NCBI GenBank assembly: GCA_015488555.1
Contig: WFNO01000066.1
Span: forward strand, 1,842-65,841
DNA: 64,000 bases
DNA from: Gammaproteobacteria bacterium
Lineage (GTDB): Bacteria; Pseudomonadota; Gammaproteobacteria; SZUA-140
Direction of reading: 5' to 3'
Position numbers and translations under genes: made by a program. The notes under the pieces are model-generated. The model saw only the letters and a list, made by a program, of their open reading frames with translations, was not told the origin of the DNA and did no database searches. Shown one piece after another: positions 7,078-31,799 of the stretch (the stretch's first letter is position 1; every line of letters starts with the position of its first letter).

Positions 7078-7164
7078 GGACAGGGAACGGAGGTCGGAGG
7101 ACAGAAAGGGAAGGCGCGATATTACAGCCTTTGAATTCCGCTCTCTGTCCTCCGTCTTCTGCCC

Positions 7165-9078
7165 TCAGTCCTCCGCCCTCCGAGCCCGTAGACCATTGGC
7201 CACCGCCAGCAGCTCGCTGGCCTCGTGCACCAGCACGGCGAAGGTCACCGAGATGAAGCCACCCACACCGGCGGGGATGAGCACCATGAGCACGGCGATG
7301 GAGAAGACGATGTTCTGCAGGCTCACCCGGCGCGCCTTGCGCCCCAGGCGCATGGCCTCCAGGAGCTTGGCCAGGTCGTCGGCCATGAGAGCGATGTCCG
7401 CCGCCTCGATGGCGGCATCGGTGCCCGCCGCGCCCATGGCCACGCCGCAGGTGGCGGCGGCCAGGGCCGGGGCGTCGTTGACGCCGTCGCCCACCATCAG
7501 GACCGGGCCCTCCCGGCCCAGGGCCTCCACGGCCGCGACCTTGTCTTCGGGCCTGAGGCCGGCGCGCACGTCGTCGATGCCCAGTTGCCGGGCGATGCGC
7601 CGCGCCGTGGCCTCGTTGTCTCCGGTGAGCATCACGGTACGAATCCCCAGCGCATGCAGGCCGGCGATCACCTGCGGGGCGTTCTCGCGCAGCACGTCCT
7701 GCAGGGCGAGGATCCCGATGATACGCTGCCGGTTACCCACCAGGACTACGGTCTTGGCCTCTTCCTGCCGGCGGCGGATGATCTCCGTCCAGGGCGAGAG
7801 GTCGAGTCCCAAGGACTCGAACAGATCGGGCTTGCCCAAGTACCAGACGGTGTCGCCCTCCCGGCCCTGGATGCCTGCGCCGGTCAGGGCCTGGACATCA
7901 CGCATGCCGCGAGGCGGGATGCCTTGTTCCTCGGCCCGTTGCCGGATGGCCCGGGCCAGGGGATGCTCCGAGTACTGCTCGAGCCCGGCGGCAATGGCCA
8001 GCAAGGCGGCTTCGTCGCCTTCGACGGCCGACACGTCGGTGACCCGCGGCCTGCCGTAGGTGAGCGTGCCGGTCTTGTCGAAGGCGATGGTGCGCACCTG
8101 GCCGAGGTGTTCCAGATGGGCGCCGCCCTTGATGAGGATGCCGCGACGCCCGGCGCCAGCGATGCCTGCGGACATGGCGATGGGCAGGGAGATGACCAGG
8201 GCGCAGGGGGCGGCGGCCACCAGCAGCACCACCGCCCGCTCGCTCCACCAGACGGTATCCAGGCCCAGCAGCCAGGGCAGGAGTAGCATGGCCAGGGCGG
8301 AGGCCAGCACCGCCGGGCTGTAGCGCCGTCCGAAACGTTCCATCCACAACTGGGCCCGGCCCTTCTGCTCCTGGGCCTCCTCCACCAGATGGATGATGCG
8401 CGCCAGGGTGTTGTCGGCGAAGCCCGCCGTGGCCTCCACGGTGAGCACGCCCTGGCCGTTGATGCTGGCTGCGAACACCTTGTCGCCCGGCCCCTTGTCC
8501 ACCGGCAGGGATTCGCCCGTCACCGGTGACTCGTCCAGGCTGGATTCGCCTTCGAGGATCACGCCGTCGGTGGGCACCGATTCGCCCGGGCGCACGACGA
8601 AACGATCTCCGGGCTGGATGGTGTCGGCGGGCACGGTGACGGTCTTGCCGCCGTCCACGAGCCGGTGCGCCGTCTTGGGCGCCAGATCCAACAAAGCGCG
8701 GATGGCGCGGCGTGTGCGGGCGAAGGTCAGCTCCTCCACGCCCTCGGCGAAGGCGTACAGCACCACCAGTGCCGCGGCCTCCTCCCACAAGCCGAGAATA
8801 CCGGCGCCGAGGGTGGCCGCCCCCATGAGGATCTCGATGCCGACGGCCCGTTCGCGGAACAGATCCTCGAGGCCTTCCCGCGCCCAGTACCAGGCCCCCA
8901 GCGGGATGGCCAACCAGTAGGCGGCCATCTCCAGAGATTCCGGAATCAGACCGGCACGCCCGCCCGCGTAGGCCCCCAGGGCCAGCAGGCCCGCCAACAA
9001 GGCGTTACGCAGGGGCGGAAAGCGCCACCAGGGCCCTGCAGCGGCCGTTTCGCCGGTGCTGCAGCCGTCCCGGGCCAT
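7165..9078 (-). CDS. Heavy-metal-translocating P1B-type ATPase. It has no N-terminal metal-binding domain and is probably a P1B-4-like Co/Zn/Cd exporter.
   Basis: 637 aa with DKTGTLT and GDGVNDAPAL. TM motif APC and a C-terminal TM containing HEASE. No CxxC/HMA domain. Confidence 0.88.
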   Translation of the reverse strand: MARDGCSTGETAAAGPWWRFPPLRNALLAGLLALGAYAGGRAGLIPESLEMAAYWLAIPLGAWYWAREGLEDLFRERAVGIEILMGAATLGAGILGLWEEAAALVVLYAFAEGVEELTFARTRRAIRALLDLAPKTAHRLVDGGKTVTVPADTIQPGDRFVVRPGESVPTDGVILEGESSLDESPVTGESLPVDKGPGDKVFAASINGQGVLTVEATAGFADNTLARIIHLVEEAQEQKGRAQLWMERFGRRYSPAVLASALAMLLLPWLLGLDTVWWSERAVVLLVAAAPCALVISLPIAMSAGIAGAGRRGILIKGGAHLEHLGQVRTIAFDKTGTLTYGRPRVTDVSAVEGDEAALLAIAAGLEQYSEHPLARAIRQRAEEQGIPPRGMRDVQALTGAGIQGREGDTVWYLGKPDLFESLGLDLSPWTEIIRRRQEEAKTVVLVGNRQRIIGILALQDVLRENAPQVIAGLHALGIRTVMLTGDNEATARRIARQLGIDDVRAGLRPEDKVAAVEALGREGPVLMVGDGVNDAPALAAATCGVAMGAAGTDAAIEAADIALMADDLAKLLEAMRLGRKARRVSLQNIVFSIAVLMVLIPAGVGGFISVTFAVLVHEASELLAVANGLRARRAED

Positions 9079-9081: not shown

Positions 9082-9414
9082 TCAGCCCCGGGACGGCTCT
9101 TCCTCGTCGATGGGCAAGGCGGCAAGGAGGTCGCTCACGTAGATCCAGCCCGCCAGCGGCTGGCCCGTGCGCGCGTGCTCGCGGATGAGGCATATGGCTT
9201 CGTCCACCCGCTCGTCCGCGCACACCAGCTCCAGCTTGACCTCGGTGATGACCTTCTCTCCCACCTCCACCGAATAACCCTGTTCCTTGCTGTCCAGGGC
9301 CTTGAGCATGCCCTTGACGTCGATGATGGACAGGTTCTGATAGCCGGCGTCCTTCAGGGCGCGGATGACGTCGGCGATGCGGTTGCGATGCACGAAGGCC
9401 TTGATCTCCTTCAT
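9082..9414 (-). CDS. P-II (GlnB-like) family protein associated with the czc efflux genes
   Basis: About 110 aa from the internal ATG (MKEIKAFVHRNR...), which overlaps the czcA stop. The longer version uses a GTG at 9444. It has a GlnB-like beta-alpha-beta pattern. Confidence 0.65.
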   Translation of the reverse strand: MKEIKAFVHRNRIADVIRALKDAGYQNLSIIDVKGMLKALDSKEQGYSVEVGEKVITEVKLELVCADERVDEAICLIREHARTGQPLAGWIYVSDLLAALPIDEEEPSRG

Positions 9415-12400
9415 GAGCGTTTCTCCTTGCGGGTTTCGATCCACTCGTAGATGACGGGCAAGAGGATCAGGGTCAACAGGGTGGAGGTGAAGAGCCCGCC
9501 CACCACCACGGAGGCCAGCGGGCGCTGGGTCTCGGCCCCCACGCCGCTGGACAGCAGCATGGGGATGAGGCCGAGGATGGCCACGCTGGCCGTCATCAAC
9601 ACCGGCCGCAGTCTGAGCTCGGCACCCTTGCGCACCGCCTCACTCACCGACAAACCCTTCTCCCGCAGCTCGTTGATGAAGCTGATGAGTACGATGCCGT
9701 TGAGCATGGCCACGCCGAAGACGGCGATGAAGCCGATGGCCGAGGGCACCGACAGGTACTGGCCGCTGATGTACAGGGACACCAGCCCGCCGATGGTGGC
9801 GAAGGGCACGTTGGCGATGATGAGCGTGGCGTATTTCACTGAATTGAAGGCCGTGTACAGCAGCACGAAGATGAAGAAGATGGTGAGCGGCACGATGATG
9901 GACAGGCGCTTCAGGGCGCGCTGCTGGTTCTCGAAGGCCCCGCCCCATTCGATCCAGTAGCCCGGCGGCAGCTCGATCTCTTGTTCGATTAGGGCATCGG
10001 CCTCCTTGACGAAACCGTCCACGTCGCGGCCGCGCACGTCCATCTGGATCACGGCATAGCGCTGCAACTGCTCGCGGCGGATGAAGGAATAGCCCTCCGC
10101 CACCTCCACCTCAGCCACCCGTTCCAGGGGGATGAGGGCGCCATCGGCGGTGCGCAGCGGAATCTTGCGAATAGCCTCCACGGAGGATTTGGAGGCATCG
10201 TCCAGGCGCGCCGTGATGTCGAAACGCCGCACGCCGTCCAGCAACGTGGTCACCGGCTCGTTGCCGATGCCGTTGCGCACCACGTCCAGCACCTCGTCGG
10301 CGTTCATGCCGTAACGGGCCAACTGCTCGCGGTTCACGCGGACGCGGATCTGGGGCTTGCCCACGTTGGCCTCCAGGGAGAGATCGGCCACCCCCGGTAC
10401 CCGGGCGATGACATCCTTGATCTTCTGGCTCAAGCGGTCCAGTTCCCCCAGATCCTCGCCGTAGAGCTTGGCGGCCAGGGTGGCGCGCACCCCGGAGATC
10501 AGCTCCTCCACCCGCATCTGGATGGGCTGGGTGAAGGCGATCACCGCCGTGGGCACCGTCTCTTCCAGGGTCTCGCGCATGGCGTCGGCGATCTCCTCGA
10601 TGGATCGGTTCCACGTCTCCTTGGGCGTGAGGCCGGTGTAGATCTCCATATAGTTGACGTCAGCGGTCTCACCCTTCTCGGCGCGGCCGATCATGGCGAT
10701 GGTGGTGGTCACCTCCGGAAACTCCCCCAGGGCTTGCGCGATCTTGTTGGAGATCTCGATGGACTCCTCCAGCGAGGTGGAAGGGATGGACGTGACCCGC
10801 CACATGATGGAACCTTCCTGGAGCTGGGGCATGAATTCCTTGCCCAGCAAGGGAAACAAGGCCAAACTGCCCGCCAGTAACAGACCCGCGGCGCTCACCA
10901 CCACCTTCTTGTGGTTCAAGGACCAGGCCAACACAGGCAGATAGCCACGCTTGATCCCGGCCACCAGCCAGGTGTCGCGTTCCGCCTTGGGCTTGAGCAC
11001 CAGGGCCGCCAGCACCGGGATGAGGGTGAGGGTGAGAATGAGCGAGCCGGCCATGGCGAAGCTGATGTTGAAGGCCATGGGCTTGAAGAGCTTGCCCTCC
11101 AGACCCTCGAGGGTGAACAAGGGCAAAAAGACGACGATGATGATGAGAATGGCAAAGGCGATGGGACTGGCCACTTCGCGCGCAGCGGTGAGCACCGCGG
11201 CGGTACGGTCCACTTTCTCGCCCCGCTCGCGCCACTCGGCCATGATGCGAAAGGCGTTCTCGGTCATCACCACGGCGCCGTCCACCATCATGCCGATGCC
11301 GATGGCGAGCCCCGCCAGCGACATCAGGTTGGCGGAGATACCGGCCTCTTCCATGAAGATGAAGGCGATGAGCATGGCCAAGGGCAGGGCGGCGATGACC
11401 ACGATGGCCGAGCGCAGCTCCCCCAGGAACAGGAACAGCACGATGGCCACCAGGATGGAGCCCTCCACCAGGGCCCTGACCGCGGTCTGCACCGCCTTCT
11501 CCACCAGGTCGGTGCGCTCGTAGACGGGATTGAGTTCCACCCCCTCGGGCAGGGCGTCGCGCACCACCTCCACCTTTTCCTTGACCGCATCCACCACGTT
11601 CTTGGCGTTGGTGCCGATGCGCGACAGGGCCATGCCCATCACCACTTCGCGGCCGTCACGGGTGACGGCGCCGAAGCGCAGGCCCGGTGCCTGGCGGATG
11701 GTGGCCACGTCGCGCAGGTACACGGGGGTGCCGTCCTGGACCTTGACCACGATGTTGCCGAGATCGGTCTCGTCCTGCACCAACCCCAGGCCACGCACCA
11801 GATACTGCTCGGGCCCCAGATCGATGTACTGGCCGCCCACCTGGCGGTTGTTGTTTTCCAGGACCGTGATGACATCGCGGAAGCTCAGATCGTACTTGAT
11901 GAGCTTGAGGGGTTCGATCACCACTTGGTACTGGCGTTCCTGCCCGCCCCAGGAGAGCACGTCGTCCACGCCCGGCGCAGTGCGCAGGATGAGGCGCACG
12001 GTCCAATCCTGCAGGGTGCGCAGATCCATGTCCGTGATGGCATCCTTGAGTTGCTCGTCGGCCCGCTCCAGGGTGTACCAGAACACCTGCCCCAGCCCAG
12101 AGGAATTGGGACCCATCTCCGGCGTGCCGTAGCCTTCGGGGATGCGGTCGGCCACCTCCAGCAGGCGTTCCATCACCAGGCGGCGCACGAAATAGATGTC
12201 CATGTCGTCCTCGAAGTACACCGACACGTAGGACAGCCCGAACAGACTCACGGAGCGGATCTCCTTGACCCCTTGCAGGCCAGCCATGCCGGACTCCACC
12301 GGGAAGGTGATGAGCTGTTCCACGTCCTCCGCCGCCAACCCCGGCGACTCTGTATAGATGTTGACCTGCACCGGCGTGACGTCGGGAAAGGCGTCGATGG

Positions 12401-12503
12401 GCACCGTGGTCACCGCCCGCCAACCCAGGGCCGCTACCACCAGGAAGGCGACGATCACCAGGAACTTGTAGCGCAGGGAGACTTCGACCAGTTTGTTCAG
12501 CAT
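9411..12503 (-). CDS. czcA: CzcA/CusA-family heavy-metal efflux RND transporter
   Basis: 1030 aa beginning MLNKLVEVSLRYKFLVIV. Typical HME-RND length with 12 TM helices. Confidence 0.95.
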   Translation of the reverse strand: MLNKLVEVSLRYKFLVIVAFLVVAALGWRAVTTVPIDAFPDVTPVQVNIYTESPGLAAEDVEQLITFPVESGMAGLQGVKEIRSVSLFGLSYVSVYFEDDMDIYFVRRLVMERLLEVADRIPEGYGTPEMGPNSSGLGQVFWYTLERADEQLKDAITDMDLRTLQDWTVRLILRTAPGVDDVLSWGGQERQYQVVIEPLKLIKYDLSFRDVITVLENNNRQVGGQYIDLGPEQYLVRGLGLVQDETDLGNIVVKVQDGTPVYLRDVATIRQAPGLRFGAVTRDGREVVMGMALSRIGTNAKNVVDAVKEKVEVVRDALPEGVELNPVYERTDLVEKAVQTAVRALVEGSILVAIVLFLFLGELRSAIVVIAALPLAMLIAFIFMEEAGISANLMSLAGLAIGIGMMVDGAVVMTENAFRIMAEWRERGEKVDRTAAVLTAAREVASPIAFAILIIIVVFLPLFTLEGLEGKLFKPMAFNISFAMAGSLILTLTLIPVLAALVLKPKAERDTWLVAGIKRGYLPVLAWSLNHKKVVVSAAGLLLAGSLALFPLLGKEFMPQLQEGSIMWRVTSIPSTSLEESIEISNKIAQALGEFPEVTTTIAMIGRAEKGETADVNYMEIYTGLTPKETWNRSIEEIADAMRETLEETVPTAVIAFTQPIQMRVEELISGVRATLAAKLYGEDLGELDRLSQKIKDVIARVPGVADLSLEANVGKPQIRVRVNREQLARYGMNADEVLDVVRNGIGNEPVTTLLDGVRRFDITARLDDASKSSVEAIRKIPLRTADGALIPLERVAEVEVAEGYSFIRREQLQRYAVIQMDVRGRDVDGFVKEADALIEQEIELPPGYWIEWGGAFENQQRALKRLSIIVPLTIFFIFVLLYTAFNSVKYATLIIANVPFATIGGLVSLYISGQYLSVPSAIGFIAVFGVAMLNGIVLISFINELREKGLSVSEAVRKGAELRLRPVLMTASVAILGLIPMLLSSGVGAETQRPLASVVVGGLFTSTLLTLILLPVIYEWIETRKEKRS

Positions 12504-12515
12504 GATCGTCTCCCC

Positions 12516-13775
12516 TCAATGTGCATGGCCTGCGCCCATCTTGGACTTGAGCAGCAGTGCCTTGAGCACGAACACCCCCTGCACCACGATCTCGTCGCCC
12601 ACCGCCAGGCCGCTGCGGATCTCGGTCCAATCGCCCAGGGTGACGCCGGTCTCCACCGGCTGGGGATGCAGTTCTTCTCCCTCCACCTTGAACACCGTGG
12701 ATGAACCCTCCATGAGAATGACCGCCGCGCGCGGCACCACCACCAGGGGCTCGGTCTGCGCGGTCTCCAGGGCCACCTCCACGAACTGGCCCGGATGGAA
12801 CAAATCGTCGCGATTGTCCACCTCCACGCGCACCGACAGGGTCCGGGTGGTCTCGTCCAAACGGTGGTGGCGCTGCACCACCCGCCCGCTCACCCAGGCC
12901 GTGCCGCCGTCCGGCCGTACCCGGGCTGCAGTACCCTCACGGATACGAGTGGCCAGAACGGGTGGCAACTGGGCCTCCACCCAGAGGGTGGATTCGTCGC
13001 TGATCTCGAACAGCACCCGGCCCGGCTCGATGAATTCCCCCACCACGAACTCGTCCCGGATCACGGTGCCGTCCTGGGGAGCGAGCAGTTTGAATTCTCC
13101 GGTGGCGCGGGAGGCATCGCCGTGTTGCAACAGGGCCTTGATCTGGGCGGGGGTCATGCCGTAGGCCTGCACCCGGGCATAGGCCTGCTGGCGGGCCACC
13201 TGGGCGGCGATGTAGCGTTTTTCCGAGACCACTTTGCGCCCCAGCTTCTTCACCCGCTTCCATTCCACATCGGCCTCTAGCAGGCTGCCCTGGGCCTCGG
13301 CCATGGCCACGCTGGAGAGCGTCACCAGGGGCTGGCCCTTCTTCACCTGCTCGCCCAGCTTGGCATGGCGAGCGATGATCTGGGCGCTGATGCGAGGGGT
13401 CACCTGGGCGGTGCGATAGGCGTTGAGTTCCACCTCACCCGGTGCCATGAACTCCTCGCTCAAGGGGCGGCGCTCCACGCGGCCGGTGAGCACGCCATTG
13501 GCCTGGCGCTGGCGGGCGTCCATGCGCAACGTCCCTTCCTCGTGGCCCTCTTCCTCGTGCGCGTGTCCCTCGCCACCATTGCCGTCATGTCCTGCTTCAC
13601 CGGCCTCGTGGTCGTGATCCGCCTCATCCGCCGCTGTGGCAGTGGTTTGCTCGCGCTCGTGATCGTGATCGCCTTCGTCGGCCAGCGCTGGCACACCCCA
13701 TAGCAACAGCCACAGCGGAAACACCAGTCCCAGCATCACCGGGCGTATCGCCTTCTTCCGAAAACCTTCTCTCAT
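12516..13775 (-). CDS. czcB: Efflux RND periplasmic adaptor (membrane fusion protein), CzcB-like, with a His-rich N-terminal region
   Basis: Internal Met (MREGFRKKAIRPVMLGLVF...) sits just after the czcC stop. The HlyD-like fold carries a DHDHE/HAHEEEGHEE stretch. Confidence 0.85.
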   Translation of the reverse strand: MREGFRKKAIRPVMLGLVFPLWLLLWGVPALADEGDHDHEREQTTATAADEADHDHEAGEAGHDGNGGEGHAHEEEGHEEGTLRMDARQRQANGVLTGRVERRPLSEEFMAPGEVELNAYRTAQVTPRISAQIIARHAKLGEQVKKGQPLVTLSSVAMAEAQGSLLEADVEWKRVKKLGRKVVSEKRYIAAQVARQQAYARVQAYGMTPAQIKALLQHGDASRATGEFKLLAPQDGTVIRDEFVVGEFIEPGRVLFEISDESTLWVEAQLPPVLATRIREGTAARVRPDGGTAWVSGRVVQRHHRLDETTRTLSVRVEVDNRDDLFHPGQFVEVALETAQTEPLVVVPRAAVILMEGSSTVFKVEGEELHPQPVETGVTLGDWTEIRSGLAVGDEIVVQGVFVLKALLLKSKMGAGHAH

Positions 13776-13777
13776 CG

Positions 13778-15085
13778 TCACATTCCTCCTTCGCCGCCGG
13801 CAGCGTGCGCTGCGGCTTCCTGTGCAGGGCCCACTTCTCCGAATCCCAACCAGCTCAGGACCTGGCCCGAAGCCGCCAGCCAGTTCACCCATGCGGACCA
13901 GGCCTCGGCCTCCAACTCGACGGCGGCCAACTCGGTATTCAGGGTTTGTTGCAATTGCACCAGATATTCCGTGGTATTGATCTCACCGCTCTCCCACAGT
14001 CGTTGCAGCAGTTTCACCCGGCCCTGCAGACTGGGCCGGCCGCTGCGCTCCCAATCCACCAGTGCCTGGCGAGTCAGGCGATAGCGGTCCGCCGCCGCCG
14101 CCATGGCCGCCCACACGCGCCGGCGCAGGTTGCGGCTGTCGGCCTCGCTGCGCCGGGCCTCGGCGGCGGCGGCCTCCACCTCGGCCCGGAAGGGATTGCG
14201 CACGAATAGGGGAATGGTGAGCGTGAGACCGATCAGCGAATCCTCCTCCTCCCGGCCGCCGCGCAGGCCCAGAGTGGGATCGGGACGGCGCTCGCGGCGC
14301 GCCAGCTCCACCCCCGCGCGGGCCGCCCGGCTCAAGGCCAGCGCCTCGCGCAGCCGGGGATGGACCGCCAGCAGGGTCTCCGAAGGCTGCGCTGCGTGAG
14401 CGGGGGGCAACGCCGGCAAGTGTGGCCAGGACGCAGGCACCCGGGAGACCAGGGCACGCAGATTGGCCTCCGCTTCCGCCAAGGCCGAAGCACGACCCGC
14501 CGCAGCCATGCGCGCCTCGCTCAGGGCGAGACGGGCCAGATCCACGTCGCTCTGACCCACGTCGCCAGCGGCGAAACGGCGCTGGGCCAGTTGCAGGAAA
14601 TCCTCCAGCAAAGCTACCCGGCGCTGGGCCAGGCGGGCGAGGCGCTCTCCCGTGTGATAGCGGCTCAGGGCGTCCAATACTTCCCGCGCCACCTGCTGGC
14701 GTACCTGGTCATGGGCCGCACGGGCAGCGCGCATCTCCGAGTTACCACGCTCGTGGCGGGCTTCTCGCTTGTCCGCCCAATCGATGGTCTGACTCAATCC
14801 GAGGGAAGTGGTATTGACGCCGGTGCGCTCGGCATCCAACTCCAACTCCGGGTTGTAGAGCGGGCGTCCCGCGGCACGAGCACGGGCCTGCGCCGCTACC
14901 AGGGCCGCCTCCGCCGCGCGCACCTCCGGGTGCTCGGCCAGCACTTCGTCCACCAGCGTCGGCAATAAGGAAGACGCCGAAATCGAAGAGGAAGCCAGCA
15001 CAGACGCGGGCGCAGCGGTAATCGCTTGCACATACAGCGACCATACGAAAAACAAAACGATGAAACTCAAATTCCTGAAGGACAT
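13778..15085 (-). CDS. czcC: TolC-family outer-membrane efflux protein, CzcC-like
   Basis: 435 aa with a signal peptide and two OEP repeats. Confidence 0.85.
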   Translation of the reverse strand: MSFRNLSFIVLFFVWSLYVQAITAAPASVLASSSISASSLLPTLVDEVLAEHPEVRAAEAALVAAQARARAAGRPLYNPELELDAERTGVNTTSLGLSQTIDWADKREARHERGNSEMRAARAAHDQVRQQVAREVLDALSRYHTGERLARLAQRRVALLEDFLQLAQRRFAAGDVGQSDVDLARLALSEARMAAAGRASALAEAEANLRALVSRVPASWPHLPALPPAHAAQPSETLLAVHPRLREALALSRAARAGVELARRERRPDPTLGLRGGREEEDSLIGLTLTIPLFVRNPFRAEVEAAAAEARRSEADSRNLRRRVWAAMAAAADRYRLTRQALVDWERSGRPSLQGRVKLLQRLWESGEINTTEYLVQLQQTLNTELAAVELEAEAWSAWVNWLAASGQVLSWLGFGEVGPAQEAAAHAAGGEGGM

Positions 15086-15151
15086 GAATCCACCCTTCCT
15101 GCAACAGATGCTTCACCACTGCCCTAGACAGCGGTCCCGGGAAAGGAGGAT

Positions 15152-15484
15152 TCAGATGCGAGGCGGTTTGGTACCAACCTCAGGATGATAGGAAACCAGG
15201 ACGCGCCAGTAACCCGGCAATTGGAAAACCGGCTGTGTGGTCAGTGCTAGAGCACCGTCGAAGGCCAAGCCCAGAAGATGGGCAGAACCATGACAATAAT
15301 GATCGTGCAAGAATTCACCGCTGCTGAAATCGATTCCGGAATCGGTGCTATCGGCGGATTGCACGAGCGAAGCTGCGACCACCTGCCCATCCGCCAGCAG
15401 GCCTGGGTGGTTGTCCCAAGCCCAAGCCAGGGAAGAGGCCAGGATGCTGGACAACAACAGGACGAGAGTGAACCGTTTGATCAT
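15152..15484 (-). CDS. Small secreted protein in the CzcI position. It carries an HDHYCH motif.
   Basis: Internal Met gives about 110 aa beginning MIKRFTLVLLLSSILASSLAWA. It lies directly upstream of czcC on the same strand, as czcI does in czcNICBA. Confidence 0.5.
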   Translation of the reverse strand: MIKRFTLVLLLSSILASSLAWAWDNHPGLLADGQVVAASLVQSADSTDSGIDFSSGEFLHDHYCHGSAHLLGLAFDGALALTTQPVFQLPGYWRVLVSYHPEVGTKPPRI

Positions 15485-15664
15485 GCCTCGCTCCGCGGCG
15501 ACGTGATTTCGCCGTGAGTATAACAGCCTTATCGCACGAACGTCATATCGGATGACTCGTTCCTTCCCTTGAACGAGCAATGGAAACGGGATCGGAGTGC
15601 TTACACTCCGACCCCATCGATTTTGTCGATTCTGTCATCTGACATCTATCATCTGACATCTGGG

Positions 15665-16282
15665 TCATTTCGCCGTATGCATGAACGCCGCCAGCAGCAC
15701 CGCGGCATCCCGCAAGCGCGTGGCGAAGACCCGCGTGGGCTTGTCACCACCGACAGCGGCCTCGGCCCTGTTCACCAGATCAGCCACGCTCAAGCCCTCA
15801 TAGCCCTCGATGAAACCCTTGCCCACGGTGCCTTCGAATTCCGGAATGTATTTCTCGCTCAAGGCGGTGAGAGCCACTTTGGTGACCTTGCCTTCGGCAT
15901 CCAGGCCCACGCCCACCGCCAGATCGCCGTGGCGATAGCCGGCCTTGAGGATGATGGCGCCACCGGCGATCCGACCATCGCTGCGGTCCTTGGCCAAATA
16001 ATAGGTGTAGAGGGACTCGTCCAGATCCACGCCGTAGGTCCGTTCCGCCCACTCGGCGCCCTCGTCGCTGAGGCGTTGTTTGCGCTTGACGATCTTGAAA
16101 TTGCCCCCGGCCGGAAGCATGGCGCGCAGGGCTTCCTTTTGCTTGAGGAAATGCACCAGCGGCCCGCCATGGCCCTTGTGCGCCAGGGCTGGCGCTGCCC
16201 AGCCACCGGCCACCAGTAGGGCGGCCAGCAGAAAGACTACTCCTCGTGTATCGAACCGGAAACCTCGAATCATGCTGCTCAT
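15665..16282 (-). CDS. Periplasmic protein with an FMN-binding-like (FMN_bind) domain
   Basis: Internal Met (MSSMIRGFRFDTRGVVFLLAALLVAGGWAAPALA) gives a signal peptide. The core IILKAGYRHGDLAVGVGLDAEGKVTKVALT...EFEGTVGKGF fits the FMN_bind pattern. Confidence 0.55.
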   Translation of the reverse strand: MSSMIRGFRFDTRGVVFLLAALLVAGGWAAPALAHKGHGGPLVHFLKQKEALRAMLPAGGNFKIVKRKQRLSDEGAEWAERTYGVDLDESLYTYYLAKDRSDGRIAGGAIILKAGYRHGDLAVGVGLDAEGKVTKVALTALSEKYIPEFEGTVGKGFIEGYEGLSVADLVNRAEAAVGGDKPTRVFATRLRDAAVLLAAFMHTAK

Positions 16283-16385
16283 TTGCTGCCTCCTCGTTCG
16301 GGGTACGGCCGCCACTGTCCGGCAGGCGGCCGTGGTGTACGAAATGGCCGGCCGGGGAAGGGAGTTGCGCTCCCCTGCCCGCCGG

Positions 16386-17165
16386 TCAGGGCATGTCGCG
16401 GGCACGCACCCAAATGATCGCACCCACGTGGAGCGGATAGGCCTTGCCCTTGTGCTCCATGGTACGGCTCTGGTCCACCAGGGCGGAGAAGCCCCACCAG
16501 CCGGCACGGGGCATGGCATAGGTGAACACACCATTGGCATCCGCCTTGACCACCTGGGTGATGAAGGGATCGGCGGGCGCGCGGGCGCTGCCGTCCTGGT
16601 TGTAATACTCCACCACCACGCGGGCGAAGGGCACGGGTTTGCCATTCAGCTTGACCACGCCCTGGAAGACGTTGTTCGTCCACAGGCCATAGGGACGGGT
16701 GAGCGGTACGATCTCGGCCTCCAGGCCCAGCTCGCGATCCCAACCCTCTTCCAGGCCGAAGGTGTTCACCACCACCTTGGTGTACTGGACGAGGAAGATC
16801 TCCTCGGCCTCGTCCCAAAAGACCTCGGGCACCACGTAGAAGATGTGATCGCCCGGCTTGCGGAACTTGTAACGCAGCGTGTAGGCCGGCAACAACTCAC
16901 CCTGGCGGTCCCGCACCTGCACCGGCTGCAGGCGTGGCAGCAGGTCCTGGTCGCGGCCGGCCACCCACACGCCCACGCGCCGGGGCTTGGCCATGGGCAC
17001 GCCCAGGTCCTCGAAGGGATGGGTGAACCGGATCTCCAGGTCTACGGCGCGCCGCTCTTCATGGGTCACCACGTCGTCTGACGGGATGAGCAACTGGTAA
17101 TGGGCCATGGCCGGCGAGGATACGCCGGCCATGGCCCCCAACAGAATGGCGAGCACGCGCCGCAC
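16386..17165 (-). CDS. DUF4198-like periplasmic (transthyretin-like) protein
   Basis: The putative GTG start gives MRRVLAILLGAMAGVSSPAMA|HYQLLIPSDD. The HYQL start and beta-rich body are typical of DUF4198 proteins. The family assignment is from memory. Confidence 0.55.
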   Translation of the reverse strand: MRRVLAILLGAMAGVSSPAMAHYQLLIPSDDVVTHEERRAVDLEIRFTHPFEDLGVPMAKPRRVGVWVAGRDQDLLPRLQPVQVRDRQGELLPAYTLRYKFRKPGDHIFYVVPEVFWDEAEEIFLVQYTKVVVNTFGLEEGWDRELGLEAEIVPLTRPYGLWTNNVFQGVVKLNGKPVPFARVVVEYYNQDGSARAPADPFITQVVKADANGVFTYAMPRAGWWGFSALVDQSRTMEHKGKAYPLHVGAIIWVRARDMP

Positions 17166-17181
17166 CAGACCACCCCACCGC

Positions 17182-18264
17182 TCAGTCGAGGTGTTCGTGG
17201 GTAGGGCCAGCCTCGCCGCCACCCAGTGCATAGCTGATGCCCAGACTCCAGCGATATTTCTCGTCGTTGGATATACCGCCCAGGTTCTGATAGACGGGAT
17301 AGGAGAAGTTGCCATAGGCGACGATGCTGCGGTTGAGCTTGAAATTAATGCCTGGCGAGAAATAGACCACGTCACCGCCGCTGTTCTTCTTGAGTTCGCC
17401 ATCTTCATTGTCTTTCTTCGCAAAGATGCCGTTGAGTTCCACCACCGGCGTGATCCAGGCATGGTGATTGTAACTCAGGGCCACATCCGCCTGCCAGGAA
17501 TTGCCGCTGCGGAAATTGTTGGCACCGGGACCGTTGACGCGTAGTATCCAGTCGGCATCCAGGGCCAGCTTGTCCGTGAGGTGGCCGCTGTAGGCGATAC
17601 CAGTCTGGACCGTGAAGGCACCGCTGCCCGGCTGGTTGTGGGTACCCAGCACCTCGTCCTGGCCGGTATACCGGTTCTTGTCGGTCTTGTTGGTGAACTT
17701 GCCGGTGGGCATGAGCAACCCAAACAGCCCTGCCCATTGGTGATTGCCGTCGTTGTAGAAGCGATAGCGGGCCATGAGCAGGGTGTCCCCCCAGCCCGGC
17801 GACTCGTCCGTCTCCGAGATACAGATCGGATCCAGGTTGTCCAGAATCCCATCACCGTTAGTATCAAAACAGGCCATGGCCTGACCATCACCGTTGTCCT
17901 TGAAGCCCTGGAAATTGTTGTACTGGGTCATGATGGCCAGATCGATGTCCTCGGCCACCGGAATGCCGATCTGGATGAAATAGGCGTCCTCCCGGGAATG
18001 CTGGTGGACGTCCTCGCCGCGCGCCCGGAAGTCCACCATCTCCTGGTCCGAGAACAGCTCATAGCGGCGCGCATCCCAGCGCAGGCCGATGACCACGTCT
18101 TCCACGATGCCGGCACCCACCGCATTGATGCTGCCGGAACCACCGCCGCGAATGGATTCGCCATGCGCGAAGGCCGTATTGTGAACCAACAACAGTGAGG
18201 CCCCTCCCATGGCCAACAATGCCACTGCCTTGGACAGAGATTGCGAGTGTTTGGATTGCTTCAT
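17182..18264 (-). CDS. Secreted beta-rich protein, a putative outer-membrane channel or porin
   Basis: 360 aa with signal peptide ...VHNTAFA|HGE, SD AGGAGA and alternating hydrophobic beta-strand patterning (RYRWSLGISYAL). No identifiable family. Confidence 0.55.
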   Translation of the reverse strand: MKQSKHSQSLSKAVALLAMGGASLLLVHNTAFAHGESIRGGGSGSINAVGAGIVEDVVIGLRWDARRYELFSDQEMVDFRARGEDVHQHSREDAYFIQIGIPVAEDIDLAIMTQYNNFQGFKDNGDGQAMACFDTNGDGILDNLDPICISETDESPGWGDTLLMARYRFYNDGNHQWAGLFGLLMPTGKFTNKTDKNRYTGQDEVLGTHNQPGSGAFTVQTGIAYSGHLTDKLALDADWILRVNGPGANNFRSGNSWQADVALSYNHHAWITPVVELNGIFAKKDNEDGELKKNSGGDVVYFSPGINFKLNRSIVAYGNFSYPVYQNLGGISNDEKYRWSLGISYALGGGEAGPTHEHLD

Positions 18265-18370
18265 TTCGTTCTCCTAAGTCATTGGGTTAGTTTAAATGAC
18301 GTCGATGTATCGGACCGGAAAGCGCATCCCAGCACACTCCGTCGTAGATTCCCACAGTTTCATCTCATTC

Positions 18371-18390
18371 TTATTACGTAATAATTATTA
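18371..18390. promoter_or_regulatory. Overlapping AT-rich perfect palindromes (TTATTACGTAATAA and TAATAATTATTA). This is a candidate metalloregulator operator in the divergent promoter region.
   Basis: Both palindromes are exact and sit in a 434-bp GC-rich intergenic region between the secreted-protein gene and the His-rich gene. Approximate coordinates. Confidence 0.45.
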
Positions 18391-18698
18391 ATCATACCGC
18401 ATACCCATTGCACGCGCAAGACCCCGGGACCGTTTGGAACCGGCGCTGAAAACGGGCACGTGGCTTCGCCGTTATCGGCGGCAGTCTTGAAATCTTGCAT
18501 ATGGCAAATGGCCAACAGTCCCCGTGCTCGAGATGTTCCGGAAATCGAGATGCAATCGGAACACCCCGGTGTTAAAGTCGGCGGGCACGATGCCGAAACA
18601 GCGGTGGGCGGCGGCCCAGCGCCCGATCGCATCCTGGCCTGCCCTTTGCGTGGCATTCGTCCCCGTAAACAACAAACCAACCCTGAAGGAGAACGCGA

Positions 18699-18971
18699 AT
18701 GGAAGGTCCACACAAGCATAGCCATCAGCACGAGCACGAACATCGCCACGGCGAGCACGAACACCCCCACACCCATGCCGACGGCACCACCCACAGCCAT
18801 CCCCACGCCCATATCCACAGTCACACCCACGTGCACGAGCACGAACACCCCCACACTCACGCCGGGGGCAGCGACGACCACGATCACCAGCACAGTGAGG
18901 ACGAGCTGGCCGGGCACGACCACGATCACCCGGATCACGATCGCGAGAGTCACGAAGACCACAGCCACTGA
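18699..18971 (+). CDS. Histidine-rich metal-binding protein (about 35% His, Hpn-like)
   Basis: 90 aa, MEGPHKHSHQHEHEHRHGEHEHPHTHADG..., with an SD GAAGGAGA 7 nt upstream. No signal peptide. A rho-independent terminator follows. Confidence 0.7.
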   Translation: MEGPHKHSHQHEHEHRHGEHEHPHTHADGTTHSHPHAHIHSHTHVHEHEHPHTHAGGSDDHDHQHSEDELAGHDHDHPDHDRESHEDHSH

Positions 18972-19066
18972 AAACCGGCCGCCGTGAAGAAGGGATCCCG
19001 GTTCTGCTGACAAAAGTGTGCCAGGATTACGAAAATTTCTACTCGAAAAGCCGGTTTTTTCTCACA

Positions 19067-19094
19067 CGCCCCGCCTCACGCGGGGCGTTTTTTT
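19067..19094 (+). terminator. Rho-independent terminator after the His-rich gene
   Basis: Stem CGCCCCGC / GCGGGGCG with a CTCA loop, followed by seven T. Confidence 0.6.
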
Positions 19095-19136
19095 GGGTAT
19101 CATGGCGCCATCTCAAAGCTGACGGGAGCGCACATC

Positions 19137-19403
19137 ATGATGGAAATGGAACACGAAATGGGTGGTGGCATCTTCGACATGATGTGGATCTTCCCCATTT
19201 TGTTCTGGGTCCTCATCATCATCGGAGCCTTTTTCCTGGTCAAATGGCTGCGCCAGCCTCCCAGCAGTGAATTGTCCAGCAAATCGGCCGCCTCGCAGGC
19301 GGTAGAGAAAAGCGACGCCGCGGGCGAACCGCAAATACCGCCCCAGGGCGAGTTCAACGGCCCGCACAAGAGTAACGGCAGGAGCAGTGGAGAGGGACCG
19401 TGA
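19137..19403 (+). CDS. Small single-TM membrane protein with a Met/His-rich N-terminus (MMEMEHEMGGG)
   Basis: 88 aa with an SD GGGAG upstream and one hydrophobic helix WIFPILFWVLIIIGAFFLV. Its end overlaps the next gene's GTG start. Confidence 0.45.
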   Translation: MMEMEHEMGGGIFDMMWIFPILFWVLIIIGAFFLVKWLRQPPSSELSSKSAASQAVEKSDAAGEPQIPPQGEFNGPHKSNGRSSGEGP

Positions 19404-19768
19404 AAAAACGGGGTTGGTTCTACGGCGGCGTGGCCTTGATCCTGCTGGCCCTGACCGGGATCTTCACCCTGTCGGGCATGAACCGCCATCACGAAGGGAT
19501 GATGGGCGGCATGGGTGGGGAAGATCGTAACGACGCGCACTCCCTGGACCATCTACCGGCTGGTATGCGCCACGATCCTGCCGCCGACGTCTTCCAGGCC
19601 TCCTGTTCCGGCTGTCATGCGCCGCCGGATCCGCGCCGCTATTCGGCCGCGGAATGGCCCGCCGTGGTTGCCCGCATGCGCCAGCATATGGTGACGCAGG
19701 GCAGGCCCGTACCGCCCCCGGAGGTGCTGGGCACCGTGGTCGAGTTCCTCCAGCGACACGCCCGCTGA
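19400..19768 (+). CDS. Membrane-anchored monoheme c-type cytochrome-like protein with a Met/His-rich segment
   Basis: 122 aa from a GTG start. N-terminal TM helix, HHEGMMGGMGG region and a CSGCH (CxxCH) haem-binding motif. Confidence 0.5.
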   Translation: MKKRGWFYGGVALILLALTGIFTLSGMNRHHEGMMGGMGGEDRNDAHSLDHLPAGMRHDPAADVFQASCSGCHAPPDPRRYSAAEWPAVVARMRQHMVTQGRPVPPPEVLGTVVEFLQRHAR

Positions 19769-19784
19769 CCAAGTACACCGCCTC

Positions 19785-20450
19785 TCACGCTCCCTCGCCG
19801 TCGTTGCTGCCCGCCCTGCGCCAGCGGCGCAACAGGCGCGGCAGGAATGTCACCGCCGCCAGCAAGCCCAGGGCCAGCAAGGCCTTCCGGATGGCGCCTT
19901 CCCCCCCCGCCAGGGCCTCGCGCCCCGCATAGCCCGCATAGGTATAGGCGGCGGCCCCGGGCAACATGGCCAAGTAGCTGGCCAGCAGATAATGGGAGAA
20001 ACGGATGGGCGTAAGCCCCAGGGCATAATTGAGCAGGTTGTAGGGAAACAGGGGCACCAGGCGCACGAACACCACGAAACGCCAGCCCTCGGCCTCCACC
20101 CCCGCCATGAGGCGTTCGAGACGGCCACCGGTCCAGCGCGCCACCCAGTCTCCGGCCACATAGCGGGCGGCGAGGAAGGCTAGGGCCGCCCCCAGGGTGG
20201 CGCCGGTGAGGTTGAAGAACGTACCCCACACGGGACCGAAGAGGGCGCCGCCGGCCAGGGTCAGCACCGAGCCCGGCAGGAACAACACCGCCGCCAGGGC
20301 ATAGAGGGCCATAAAGACCAGGGGCGCCAGCCAACCGGCCCCTTGCAACCAGGCTTCGAGGGCGGTGACATCGAAACGGTCGCGGTAAGACCAAGCCAGG
20401 ACGATGGCCAACCCCAGTCCCAGCAGGGTCAACCAGCGCCTAGCGTCCAT
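19785..20450 (-). CDS. TVP38/TMEM64 (DedA-like) family membrane protein
   Basis: 221 aa, multi-TM, with a conserved G..L.G..FG core. Confidence 0.8.
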   Translation of the reverse strand: MDARRWLTLLGLGLAIVLAWSYRDRFDVTALEAWLQGAGWLAPLVFMALYALAAVLFLPGSVLTLAGGALFGPVWGTFFNLTGATLGAALAFLAARYVAGDWVARWTGGRLERLMAGVEAEGWRFVVFVRLVPLFPYNLLNYALGLTPIRFSHYLLASYLAMLPGAAAYTYAGYAGREALAGGEGAIRKALLALGLLAAVTFLPRLLRRWRRAGSNDGEGA

Positions 20451-21345
20451 CCCGCCCCTTCTCCTGCTCCACCACCCGTTGTGGCCCCCGCCCTTCGCCC
20501 GGCCCCGCCCAACTGCGGCGGTTGAGCGGATAGGTCCCCAGCTCGCGCCGGAACGGCAACCACAGCATGCCCGGCAGGCGCGCCACGATCCGGGGATCGC
20601 GGCAGGTATGGATGCCGATGGTCATGCCCTGGTGCCCGCCGCGGGGCTGGTCCCGATAGGTACCGAACAAGCGATCCCACCAAGGCAGATTGAAACCGAA
20701 ATTACTGTTGGCTTCGTCGTCGGCCACGGAATGATGCACCCGGTGCATGTCCGGGGTGACCACCACCCAGCGCAGCCAGTGGTCCAGGCGCGGCGGCAGG
20801 CGCAGATTACCATGATTGAACATGGCCGTGGCATTGAGCAACACCTCGAAGATCACCACCGCCACCAGGGGCGGCCCCAGCAGCAGGATGGCGGCGAACT
20901 TGATGAGCATGGACAGCAGGATCTCGATGGGATGGAAACGCGCCCCAGTGGTGACGTCGAAGTCCAGGTCCGCGTGATGAACACGATGCAGGCGCCACAA
21001 CAGGGGCACGGCATGGAACAGGACGTGCTGGAGATAGATCACCAGATCCAGCAACACTACGCTCACGACTATAGCCAGTCCCGCCGGGGCCTCCACCACG
21101 TTGAACCAGCCCCATTGCTGCGCCGCCGCCCAGGCCGCCACCCCCACGGCGGCGGCCGGAAACAGCAGGCGCAGGAGCAATACGTTGAGGGCCGTCAGGC
21201 CCAGGTTGTGCACCCACCTGCGCAAGCGCGACAACTGCAACGGCCGGCGCGGCGCCAGCCGCTCCCCCCCGGCCACGGCGGCGAATACCAGCAGGAAGGC
21301 CGCCAGGCGGATAATGGGTTCATAGGCCAAAACGAATGTGCTCAT
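20440..21345 (-). CDS. Sterol desaturase / fatty-acid hydroxylase superfamily membrane protein
   Basis: 301 aa with histidine boxes HRVHHAD and HRVHH plus TM helices. Confidence 0.8.
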   Translation of the reverse strand: MSTFVLAYEPIIRLAAFLLVFAAVAGGERLAPRRPLQLSRLRRWVHNLGLTALNVLLLRLLFPAAAVGVAAWAAAQQWGWFNVVEAPAGLAIVVSVVLLDLVIYLQHVLFHAVPLLWRLHRVHHADLDFDVTTGARFHPIEILLSMLIKFAAILLLGPPLVAVVIFEVLLNATAMFNHGNLRLPPRLDHWLRWVVVTPDMHRVHHSVADDEANSNFGFNLPWWDRLFGTYRDQPRGGHQGMTIGIHTCRDPRIVARLPGMLWLPFRRELGTYPLNRRSWAGPGEGRGPQRVVEQEKGRDGR

Positions 21346-30311: not shown

Positions 30312-31799
30312 GTGAGCAGTTCCCACGACAAGCCCAGCGAGAAATTCAAACTGTGGTCCTTCAGCGGCAGGGTTCGGATCCTACACCTGACTTGGTTCGC
30401 TTTCTTCCTCAGCTTCTTCGTGTGGTTCAACCACGCCCCCTTGCTGGGCGCCATCCGGGAATCCCTGCAGCTTAGCGAGCAGGAAGTAAAGGCCCTGCTC
30501 ATTCTCAACGTGGCCCTCACCATTCCCGCACGCATCGTAGTGGGCATGCTGGTGGACCGCTTTGGCCCGCGCATCCTGTTCGCCGCTCTGCTCAGCATCG
30601 CCGCCGTCATCTGCTTCGGCTTCGCCTTTGCCGAGGACTATCAACAGATGGCTATCCTGCGTTTCCTGCTGGGCTTCGTGGGCGCGGGCTTCGTCATCGG
30701 CATCCGCCTCATTGCCGAATGGTTCCCGGCCCGGGAGGTTGGCCTGGCGGAAGGGATCTATGGCGGTTGGGGCAACTTCGGCTCCGCCGCCGCGGCCATC
30801 ACCCTGCCCACCCTGGCCCTGGCCTTCGGCGGCGAGGACGGCTGGCGCTATGCCATCGCTACCACCGGTGTCATCGCCTTGCTCTACGCCCTGGTGTTCT
30901 ACCGTCTGGCCCGCAACACCCCCAAAGGCTCCACCTATTTCAAACCCAAGAAGAGCGGCGCCCTGGAGGTGACCAGCCCCGGCGACTTCTTCCTCTATAT
31001 CATCATGTGCCTGCCGCTCTACGTCGCCTTGGCTTTGCTGGTATGGAAACTCGGACCGGAACAGCTCGCCATGCTGGGCACCGCCCTGACCTACACGCTC
31101 TACGGCCTGCTGGCAGTGTTGTTCCTCTATCAAGCGATGCATATCCACCGCGTCAACCGCCACGTCTTCGAAAAACCGGTGCCGGAGTTGGAACGCTACA
31201 AGTTCAAGCAAGTAGCCATTCTCAACCTGGCCTATCTGGTCACTTTTGGCTCGGAGCTGGCAGTGGTTTCCATGCTGCCCTTGTTCTTCCAGGACACCTT
31301 CGGCCTGTCGCTGGTGATGGCAGGCCTGCTGGCCTCCGGCTATGCCTTCATGAATCTGGTCTCGCGTCCCACCGGCGGCCTGTGGAGTGATCGTTTCGGC
31401 CGCCGCCGCACCCTGGCCCTGTTGCTGGCCGGTCTGGTGGTAGGTTATCTGCTCATGAGCCAGATCCACAGCGGCTGGCCGGTGGCGCTGGCGGTGGTGG
31501 TGGCCATGCTCTGCTCTTTCTTCGTACAAGCGGGAGAAGGAGCGGTGTTCGCCATGGTACCCCTGGTGAAGCGACGCCTCACCGGCCAGATCGCCGGCAT
31601 GACCGGGGCTTACGGCAACGTAGGTGCTGTGCTCTTCCTCACCGTGCTGTCCTTCGTCTCCCCTCAGACCTTCTTCCTGGTGATCGCCGGGATGGCCTTG
31701 CTGGTGCTGGTGGCGGTATGGTTCTTTCTCGACGAACCCAAGGGACACATGGTGGAGACCCTGCCCGACGGCACAGTACAGATGATCGAAGTGAATTGA
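30312..31799 (+). CDS. narK: Nitrate/nitrite transporter (MFS, NarK/NasA family)
   Basis: GTG start preceded by AAGGAG gives [15 protein letters not shown]... The 12-TM MFS body has NNP-family motifs. The ORF track started 7 codons earlier at a TTG. Confidence 0.85.

Follow-up and report, generated by a model that had tools for sequence, protein, structure and literature searches.

A translationally coupled gene pair for a predicted Met-rich cytochrome c and a small SHOCT-related membrane protein, recurrent beside metal-stress genes

Results

We analysed two small overlapping open reading frames, ORF1 and ORF2, in a 64,000-nucleotide stretch of DNA from a gammaproteobacterium of the SZUA-140 lineage (GenBank assembly GCA_015488555.1, contig WFNO01000066.1, positions 1,842 to 65,841 of the forward strand; hereafter the window, in whose numbering all positions are given unless another locus is named). 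Judged by sequence comparison, the pair appears to be a lineage-specific, trimmed member of a widespread module in which a Met-rich cytochrome c is encoded alongside a small SHOCT-type membrane protein. What is new is this pairing as a module; the type of the haem domain itself (DHC/SorB-like) is already known. The original prediction, made from the letters of the window, had called the pair uncharacterised, and indeed neither the pair nor the module is described in the literature and the curated families that we searched. The features of the pair are as follows; L numbers designate loci of relatives, and aa and TM stand for amino acids and transmembrane.

19030–19136, + strand: leader of ORF1, with a G+C hairpin and T-run (19066–19095) and a TATCAT hexamer (about 19098–19103); near-invariant in L010–L013
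19137–19403, + strand: ORF1, 88 aa, starting MMEMEHEMGGGIFDMM; small bitopic membrane protein, predicted N-out/C-in, SHOCT-less member of its family
19137–19184, + strand: ORF1 residues 1–16, MMEMEHEMGGGIFDMM; Met/His/acidic N-terminal tail, predicted to be periplasmic, kept in L010–L013
19185–19247, + strand: ORF1 residues 17–37, WIFPILFWVLIIIGAFFLVKW; predicted TM helix, near-invariant in close relatives and aligning with the TM helix of the SHOCT-type partners
19248–19400, + strand: ORF1 residues 38–88; low-complexity tail in the place of SHOCT, presumably cytoplasmic, with no Pfam match, deleted in L013
19400–19403, + strand: GTGA, read from the sequence, in which the stop of ORF1 overlaps the start of ORF2
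19400–19768, + strand: ORF2, 122 aa, GTG start; signal anchor or signal peptide, Met/His-rich flexible segment and monohaem c-type cytochrome domain, all predicted
19478–19525, + strand: ORF2 residues 27–42, MNRHHEGMMGGMGGED; juxtamembrane Met/His-rich segment, of which residues 28–42 are NRHHEGMMGGMGGED
19562–19765, + strand: ORF2 residues 55–122; predicted cytochrome c domain with CSGCH at residues 69–73 (19604–19618) and the invariant Met93 (19676–19678)

Both frames, their Met/His-rich stretches, the single CSGCH and the overlap were found in the sequence and its translations as originally predicted.

ORF1 and ORF2 are conserved genes

ORF1 and ORF2 are real genes under purifying selection, because the trio of an upstream His-rich gene, ORF1 and ORF2 was called with intact reading frames on 11 metagenome or metagenome-assembled genome (MAG) contigs of hot-spring type, and because the ratio of non-synonymous to synonymous substitution (dN/dS), computed for the window copy against the diverged copies in L010–L012, is low. 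It is 0.10 for ORF1 residues 1–47 and 0.20–0.26 for ORF2; the tail of ORF1 is weakly constrained (0.33–0.66). Diverged copies of ORF1 at 75–87% identity exist. Conservation of the frames had been named beforehand as a test of the original prediction, and it is seen here both in these contigs and in the recurrence of the pair in related loci described below. Shine-Dalgarno-like sequences precede both genes, namely GGGAG, 8 nucleotides (nt) 5' of the ATG of ORF1, and GGAGAGGGA, 5' of the GTG of ORF2.

The roughly 105 nt in front of ORF1 is near-invariant although the coding dS of the relatives is about 0.5, and this holds also in L013, where a different gene lies upstream. Its hairpin and T-run, which are terminator-like, stand only about 40 nt before the start codon of ORF1, and the leader may be a promoter, an attenuator or a terminator. 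A search of positions 18200–19900 against Rfam found no known riboswitch or leader and gave a chance match to SgrS alone (13.8 bits against a cut-off of 37), and a promoter scan found no convincing sigma-70 promoter for ORF1. Readings of the leader as a MerR-type or an ECF-type promoter were unconvincing and were dropped.

In L013 (a contig of JGI 3300003178, positions 700–1000 there), about 150 nt are missing, by which the tail of ORF1 and the first codons of ORF2 are gone. An ORF1 of 52 aa is left, and ORF2 could start at a TTG within its hydrophobic segment; the contig has a run of N, and an assembly artefact is possible.

ORF2 is predicted to be a monohaem cytochrome c with a Met/His-rich extension

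The N terminus of ORF2 has KKR, which gives it three positive charges, ahead of a hydrophobic run of about 21 residues; this N-terminal sequence, MKKRGWFYGGVALILLALTGIFTLSG, runs into MNRHH with L-S-G at positions −3 to −1. Together with the homologues, which show clear signal peptides, lipoprotein signals or anchors, this points to export to the periplasm. The original prediction had described ORF2 as membrane-anchored. The hydrophobic stretch is present, but L-S-G is compatible with cleavage as well, and the sequence allows both an anchor that stays uncleaved and a signal peptide that is removed.

The segment that follows holds four Met within residues 27–38, and the first 16 residues of ORF1 hold six, in both cases, by simple count, far above the typical Met frequency of about 2–3% by our own estimate. 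The Met-rich stretches of both proteins are kept in the diverged relatives L010–L014, that of ORF2 as RHHE(G/E)MMGGMM in L010–L012 and as RHHRGMMGGMMGG in L014. This segment of ORF2 is predicted to be flexible because the AlphaFold2 confidence score (pLDDT) stays below 50 over residues 15–42.

For the C-terminal part we compared 78 distinct homologous domains. C69, C72, H73, P76, P78, W86, M93 and L117 are invariant among them, R92 is conserved in 99%, M97 in 92% and H120 in 59%; Met93 lies within an R-M pair. The conservation of the CxxCH cysteines, another test named beforehand, is therefore complete in this set, and the single haem c motif of the original prediction stands, since its Cys and His and the distal Met are all invariant and the predicted fold matches cytochromes c throughout. 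The haem would be ligated by His73 and Met93; bis-His ligation is unlikely because His120 is conserved in only 59% of the domains. The homologues share only the last ~60 residues with ORF2, and most of the relatives are dihaem proteins of 210–230 aa with two copies of the domain. Databases name the family members "hypothetical protein", "c-type cytochrome", generic cytochrome c2 or c5, or mono/diheme cytochrome c family.

The haem domain was modelled with confidence by AlphaFold2, and the predicted structure has the cytochrome c fold, its top Foldseek matches all being c-type cytochromes (DHC, SorB and cytochrome c_z); a profile search of the PDB sequences matched a Rhodothermus cytochrome c, CcoP and FccA. 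None of the curated Pfam and NCBIfam cytochrome models scored above its threshold on ORF2. Cytochrome_CBB3 reached 16.2 bits (cut-off 27), DHC 17 bits (cut-off 22.2, and over profile positions 2–56 only), and the TorC C-terminal domain and SorB models of NCBIfam matched below threshold; with 30.2 bits, a dihaem relative in L029 does exceed the cut-off of Cytochrome_CBB3. We read ORF2 as a small monohaem c-type cytochrome, as predicted by sequence and model, behind a flexible Met/His-rich segment.

The closest known type for this haem domain is that of the DHC and SorB domains (Rhodobacter sphaeroides DHC, 2fwt; Shewanella baltica DHC, 3u99; Starkeya novella SorB, 2blf_B), but the sequence of ORF2 scores below the thresholds of both families. 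DHC carries two haems and ORF2 one, and with a single CxxCH and a score below the gathering threshold ORF2 falls outside DHC (PF09626). SorB forms part of sulfite dehydrogenase, and a gene for SorA is absent here. Unlike both, ORF2 has the PDP...EWPxVVxRM signature of its family, the Met/His-rich N-terminal extension and a dedicated partner gene. In the dihaem subunit FccA of flavocytochrome c sulfide dehydrogenase (FCSD; 1fcd_C, 3vrd_A), both haem domains align weakly with the dihaem relatives (E=0.012–0.029), and eight loci place such relatives beside an SQR/FCSD-like flavoprotein. These flavoproteins, however, score as type III SQR and not as FccB, and ORF2 in the window has one haem and no flavoprotein neighbour.

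The layout of anchor, linker and haem domain resembles cytochrome c_y of Rhodobacter capsulatus, for which this architecture is well established, and cytochrome c_z of Chlorobaculum tepidum (3a9f_B). Although it does not seem likely, the pair might serve as a carrier of respiratory electrons, ordinary or alternative, in which ORF2, tethered like c_y or c_z, would deliver electrons to a terminal oxidase or take them from a dehydrogenase such as an SQR/FCSD-like flavoprotein, with the Met stretches as linker or antioxidant sequence devoid of metal chemistry and ORF1 as a stabilising subunit. The structure and profile matches listed above, all of them to electron-transfer cytochromes, agree with such a role. 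The linkers of c_y and c_z are Ala/Pro-rich, whereas that of ORF2 is rich in Met, His and Gly; the N terminus of ORF2 is possibly cleaved; c_y and c_z are encoded among photosynthesis and respiration genes and ORF2 in a metal island, with a coupled small partner gene. Against such a role, RHH-x-GMMGGM is kept between the window and L014 despite an overall identity of 48%.

Two other identities were rejected. CopJ, the CxxC protein induced by copper in Rubrivivax and Cupriavidus (PMC4600104), is unsupported as a relative of ORF2 at the level of BLAST, and tblastn of ORF2 against 72,556 plasmids returned one weak Variovorax match. In L022 and L085, the small proteins encoded upstream of the single-haem cytochromes had no FixP_N/CcoP-like match in Pfam, and an anchor of that type was discarded.

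ORF1 appears to be a SHOCT-less derivative of a SHOCT protein family

The N-terminal tail of ORF1 is placed in the periplasm, and its C-terminal tail in the cytoplasm, by the positive-inside rule, because there is no Lys or Arg before the TM helix and K36, R39 and K49 come after it. A word-indexed homology search with ORF1 gave three near relatives only, and the protein seemed to be an orphan. This appearance was overturned by a hidden Markov model (HMM) and by an exhaustive profile search. The HMM, built from 26 partner proteins of ORF2 relatives with the window sequence left out and tested among 3,959 ORFs, matched ORF1 over residues 2–44 with E=7e-11, the next non-member being at 0.045. The exhaustive search, which covered 1.84 billion representative proteins, found strong matches in the own cluster of ORF1 alone and 35 weak ones (E from 1e-5 to 1e-3), and 31 of these 35 carry Pfam SHOCT. 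ORF1 itself has no match to SHOCT (PF09851) even at E<=10, and its tail is without the RYA(K/R)GEI motif.

By these comparisons ORF1 seems to be a SHOCT-less derivative of a large family of small proteins that consist of a Met/Gly/Trp-rich tail, a TM helix and a cytoplasmic SHOCT domain. It shares with the cytochrome-paired subfamily a homologous N-terminal tail and TM helix as well as an adjacent Met-rich cytochrome, and its synteny and overlap match L014, the closest syntenic relative, which keeps a full SHOCT version at the same position with the same 4-nt overlap; the difference lies in the SHOCT domain itself, which is missing from ORF1. SHOCT was described as a cytoplasmic two-helix domain without a described function that may bind another partner, and a test of its oligomerisation was negative (Eberhardt et al. 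2013, PMC3581485). A link between SHOCT and cytochrome c was not found in the literature searched.

Met-rich cytochromes and SHOCT-type proteins recur as a pair

Relatives of ORF2 were collected by a scan with one genome per species, which gave at least 360 loci with a relative, and the best 80 were kept. Among these 80, a SHOCT-type partner gene stands next to the Met-rich cytochrome gene or within 1.6 kb of it in 26, and immediately adjacent in 23. In the partner proteins, a Met/Gly/Trp-rich N-terminal tail is followed by one TM helix and, at the C terminus, by SHOCT (PF09851). The recurrence, in several phyla, answers the proposal in the original prediction that conservation of the pair in related genomes be checked. 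The carriers, as read from record titles, many of which are those of MAGs, belong to Gammaproteobacteria, Betaproteobacteria, Geobacter, Pelobacter and Thermodesulfobacteriota and include a Manganitrophaceae MAG. Nitrospirota are also among the groups across which the module is conserved.

The partner gene lies upstream with a 4-nt overlap in L014 (where the overlap reads ATGA), L019, L021, L025, L027 and L034, and directly downstream in Thiobacillus, Thiofaba and Tepidiphilus; 4-nt overlaps between partner and cytochrome genes occur also in L042 and in Methylococcus (L094). The translational coupling that had been proposed from the GTGA in the window thus recurs among relatives.

The partner gene is absent from all 31 betaproteobacterial homologues found in a housekeeping neighbourhood, and Met content is 9.6% in the partnered cytochromes vs 5.1% in the housekeeping group. 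The housekeeping homologues speak for an ordinary electron carrier, as do the eight loci in which type III SQR is directly adjacent; against it stand the confinement of the partner gene and of the high Met content to the subgroup in stress islands and the coupling of the pair, in many lineages, to MerR or ArsR regulators and metal pumps.

L014 shares with the window the His-rich gene, the genes for a 205-aa and a 111-aa protein, and the DUF4198, VTT-domain, fatty-acid-hydroxylase-family and PAS kinase genes. There, in addition to SHOCT being kept, the stop of a MerR-family gene overlaps the start of the SHOCT gene.

A further arrangement is a cassette of ArsR, an ATPase with an APC motif, DUF302 (in some), a dihaem Met-rich cytochrome, SHOCT and an LTXXQ/CpxP-like protein, present in L035, L037, L039 and L094. 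In Methylococcus capsulatus (L094) the order is ArsR, ATPase, DUF302, cytochrome, SHOCT and LTXXQ/Metal_resist, flanked by recombinase/resolvase and phage-like genes. Across 5.8 kb, the cassettes of Thiofaba sp. EF100 and Tepidiphilus olei agree at 99% identity, and identity to the M. capsulatus island is 85%. Because of the near-identity of the Thiofaba and Tepidiphilus copies and the recombinase-flanked Methylococcus island, the sequences indicate that the cassette is in some cases mobile and was recently transferred horizontally.

The gene directly after the pair differs between loci. In L034 it encodes an ApbE flavin transferase (6192–7115, + strand of that locus), and in L035 an LTXXQ/Metal_resist protein (6482–7198, + strand; CpxP/Spy/ZraP-like) with a Met/Gly-rich N-terminal stretch of its own, GYGMGPGMMGGWCPMCGM.

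Neighbouring genes point to metal stress, with sulfide stress in some lineages

The window encodes a metal-transporting ATPase at some distance from the pair.

7165–9078, − strand: P1B-type ATPase, 637 aa, whose TM motif is APC instead of CPC, AAAPCALVISLP; last helix with HEASELLAVANGLR; NCBIfam TIGR01512, 524 bits (Cd family)

It is 50–56% identical over its full length to pair-adjacent ATPases in 13 other loci, all with APC, and APC-type P1B ATPases of 635–660 aa occur with the pair in 14 loci, in addition to the window. By its APC motif the window ATPase resembles mycobacterial CtpG, an APC-motif exporter of Zn and/or Cd that is controlled by the ArsR-family regulator CmtR and depends on the single-TM scaffold PacL2 (PMC9045314, PMC13460109). 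The other recurrent neighbours are ArsR/SmtB or MerR regulators, DUF302, YtkA-CusB adaptors, RND pumps and outer-membrane factors. In L019 and L034 the pair comes directly after cusBA-cusF; L019 has CusF and a CusA-type pump with the M573/M623/M672 triad, and the CusBA and CusF homologues of L034 were assigned by BLAST clustering only. About eight loci carry genes for type III SQR, DsrE and ArsR-rhodanese.

The RND pump of the window belongs to the CusA/CzcA family, but a Cus-type Cu/Ag identity is ruled out because R, Y and E replace the CusA Met triad at positions 573, 623 and 672. Our tblastn search of the window for homologues of MerR, ArsR, DUF302 and CusF found none. Since the exporters differ among lineages, the window ATPase is of the APC type and the window RND pump is not of the Cus type, the context speaks for metal stress in general, and for sulfide stress in some lineages, but not for Cu/Ag in particular. 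The Cu/Ag specificity expected originally is therefore not supported for the window, and only some relatives (L019, L034) adjoin CusF or CusBA. Similarly, the Met-rich stretches had been likened to those of CusF, PcoC and CopA, but the resemblance is one of composition, with no sequence relationship; neither ORF1 nor ORF2 has a Pfam or NCBIfam match to the CusF, PcoC, CopK or CopA families. With CusF, CopK, PcoC, the Met-rich insert of CueO and the Mets motifs of Ctr1 the pair shares Met clusters accompanied by His (and by Trp in the SHOCT-type partners) that are exposed outside the cytoplasm. Homology is lacking, and in the pair the Met-rich segments, which should be disordered by prediction, are joined to a haem protein.

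The recurrence of the pair with CtpG-like ATPases in these 14 loci and the window raises another reading, by analogy with the PacL proteins. These keep CtpC, CtpG and CtpV stable and clustered, are encoded beside such ATPases and are needed for them to function (PMC13460109). ORF1 and its SHOCT-type counterparts might likewise serve as a scaffold or chaperone of a neighbouring metal pump, with the cytochrome as an accessory. ORF1 does share the gross architecture of PacL, a single TM helix with a disordered cytoplasmic region, and the PacL2–CtpG system of Mycobacterium tuberculosis also has an ArsR-family regulator and an APC-motif ATPase (PMC13460109, PMC9045314). However, PacL systems have no cytochrome, and the SHOCT-type gene is tied to the cytochrome in 26/26 loci and to an ATPase in about half of them, ORF1 thus being linked most closely to the cytochrome. 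In addition, ORF1 has no Pfam match to DUF1490 or DUF6110, which places it outside PacL, and the window ATPase gene is 10 kb distant and oriented the other way. We consider this reading improbable.

The regulators, on the other hand, could suggest a periplasmic sensor, in which a metal or redox state would be read by the Met-rich segments and the haem and relayed by the bitopic protein to a cytoplasmic regulator. The suggestion that SHOCT may bind another partner (PMC3581485) would suit such a relay. So would the translational coupling of the MerR-family gene to the pair in L014, the ArsR genes that head the cassettes in Thiobacillus and Methylococcus, and the PAS histidine kinase and response regulator encoded downstream in both the window and L014. 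MerR and ArsR proteins, however, are known to sense cytoplasmic metal directly, and the window lineage has lost SHOCT and MerR, yet its pair stays under purifying selection. To this reading, too, we give little credence.

A possible role in periplasmic metal-redox chemistry

We tentatively favour a periplasm-facing redox module for metal stress as the function of the pair, a view that takes up the periplasm-facing metal/redox module of the original prediction. That part of it agrees with the predicted cytochrome, the metal island and the predicted periplasmic position of both Met-rich stretches; the specificity for Cu/Ag and the tie to the His-rich gene, which it had included, are not established. 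In the model that follows, topology, the interaction of ORF1 and ORF2, the binding of metal, the identity of that metal and the way in which electrons flow are all inferred. ORF2 would be a monohaem cytochrome facing the periplasm, either tethered to the inner membrane by its helix or released by cleavage of the signal peptide, with the haem held covalently at Cys69 and Cys72 and ligated axially by His73 and Met93, and with the flexible Met/His segment between the membrane and the haem domain. ORF1 would be its small bitopic partner, with the Met/His-rich tail outside and a degenerate cytoplasmic tail in place of the ancestral SHOCT. The two proteins would be made in coupled amounts and would associate via their TM or juxtamembrane parts, and the Met/His clusters of both might form, on the outer side of the inner membrane, a patch that binds soft metals. 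The haem could then exchange electrons with a bound ion, for example in taking Cu(I) to Cu(II), and pass the electron on to the respiratory chain. Alternatively, it could sustain periplasmic electron transfer while the RND and P1B pumps export metals.

A bolder version, which we think unlikely, is that of a horizontally mobile periplasmic metal-redox device, as yet unrecognised, whose thioether/imidazole clusters at the membrane surface would capture a soft metal ion such as Cu(I) or Ag(I) and whose haem, beside the P1B and RND exporters, would alter the redox state of the ion or drain its electron to the respiratory chain, as a haem counterpart of multicopper oxidases.

Several observations weigh against a dedicated role in metal stress. 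The betaproteobacterial paralogue lies in a non-stress context, downstream of a Methyltransf_28 gene, which shows that the haem domain as such serves for electron transport in general. Met-rich N-terminal tails are general to small SHOCT proteins and not particular to those that adjoin cytochromes. The exporters vary by lineage (CusBA/CusF, APC ATPases of a Zn/Cd-like kind, non-Cus RND pumps), and some loci have SQR, DsrE and rhodanese instead; no single metal is implicated, and Zn and Cd are not redox-active. In the window lineage the SHOCT domain and the MerR gene have been lost, and the pair is more diverged from L014 (48% identity for ORF2, 43% over the N-terminal half of ORF1) than are its neighbours (64–76%), so that its role here may be reduced.

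These losses and this faster divergence, together with the weakly constrained tail of ORF1 and the deletion in L013 that takes this tail and the start of ORF2, could even make the pair a decaying remnant with little or no function in this genome, but this is highly improbable in view of the low dN/dS of the N-terminal half of ORF1 and of ORF2, the intact predicted haem ligands, the conserved upstream leader and the intact frames in 11 contigs.

Metal-resistance islands hold many small accessory genes of undescribed role, two of which are now linked into a conserved module. If the pair does couple redox reactions to metals, it would stand as a haem-based alternative to CueO and other cuprous oxidases and would provide a first functional role for small SHOCT membrane proteins, whose domain was described in 2013 without a function; if it is only an alternative electron carrier, the value of the finding is modest and mainly one of annotation. 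Culturable carriers exist, among them Methylococcus capsulatus (CP079097), Tepidiphilus olei or T. thermophilus, Thiofaba sp. EF100 and Thiobacillus, which makes direct testing possible.

Other genes of the window around the pair

Upstream of ORF1 lies the His-rich gene, and two genes convergent with the pair lie downstream.

18699–18971, + strand: His-rich protein, 90 aa with 33 His (37%), no signal peptide or TM helix
19785–20450, − strand: VTT/DedA-like membrane protein, assigned by Pfam
20440–21345, − strand: fatty-acid-hydroxylase-family (OlsE-like) protein, assigned by Pfam

The His-rich protein (dN/dS 0.07–0.09; 71% identity to the L014 orthologue) is probably a cytoplasmic metal-buffering protein. 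Its adjacency to the pair, to which the original prediction had given weight, is kept in close relatives and in L014 but not across the family, and the hairpin and T-run separate it from ORF1. The VTT and fatty-acid-hydroxylase genes adjoin the pair also in L014 (76% identity to the window copies) and L019, and in L065 the fatty-acid-hydroxylase gene alone does so; in these three loci the families were assigned by BLAST clustering with the window genes. Both genes may take part in the same stress response, perhaps via modification of membrane lipids.

On the − strand, a string of genes at 9082–18264 encodes a Phenol_MetA_deg outer-membrane protein, DUF4198, the 205-aa and 111-aa proteins, an outer-membrane factor, a CzcB-like adaptor, the CusA/CzcA RND pump and a P-II-like protein. 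The 205-aa and 111-aa proteins match no family and contain the motifs AHKGHGGP and WAWDNHPG. TM4 of the RND pump holds GIGMMVDGAVVMTEN, in which the first Asp of the CzcA motif is missing; the motif in TM4 of CzcA is DFG...D...EN. The order of RND pump, P-II and APC-ATPase is also found in a Thermodesulfobacteriota locus (L073). Far downstream, at 31718–33574 (+ strand), a 618-aa fusion of a PP2C phosphatase with a Ser/Thr protein kinase is encoded, which has no relation to the pair. Just beyond the ATPase, at 4013–6031 (− strand), lies a gene for a full-length DsbD that comprises a DsbD_N, a DsbD_TM and a thioredoxin domain; both the maturation of cytochrome c and the periplasmic thiol systems of copper stress receive reductant from DsbD.

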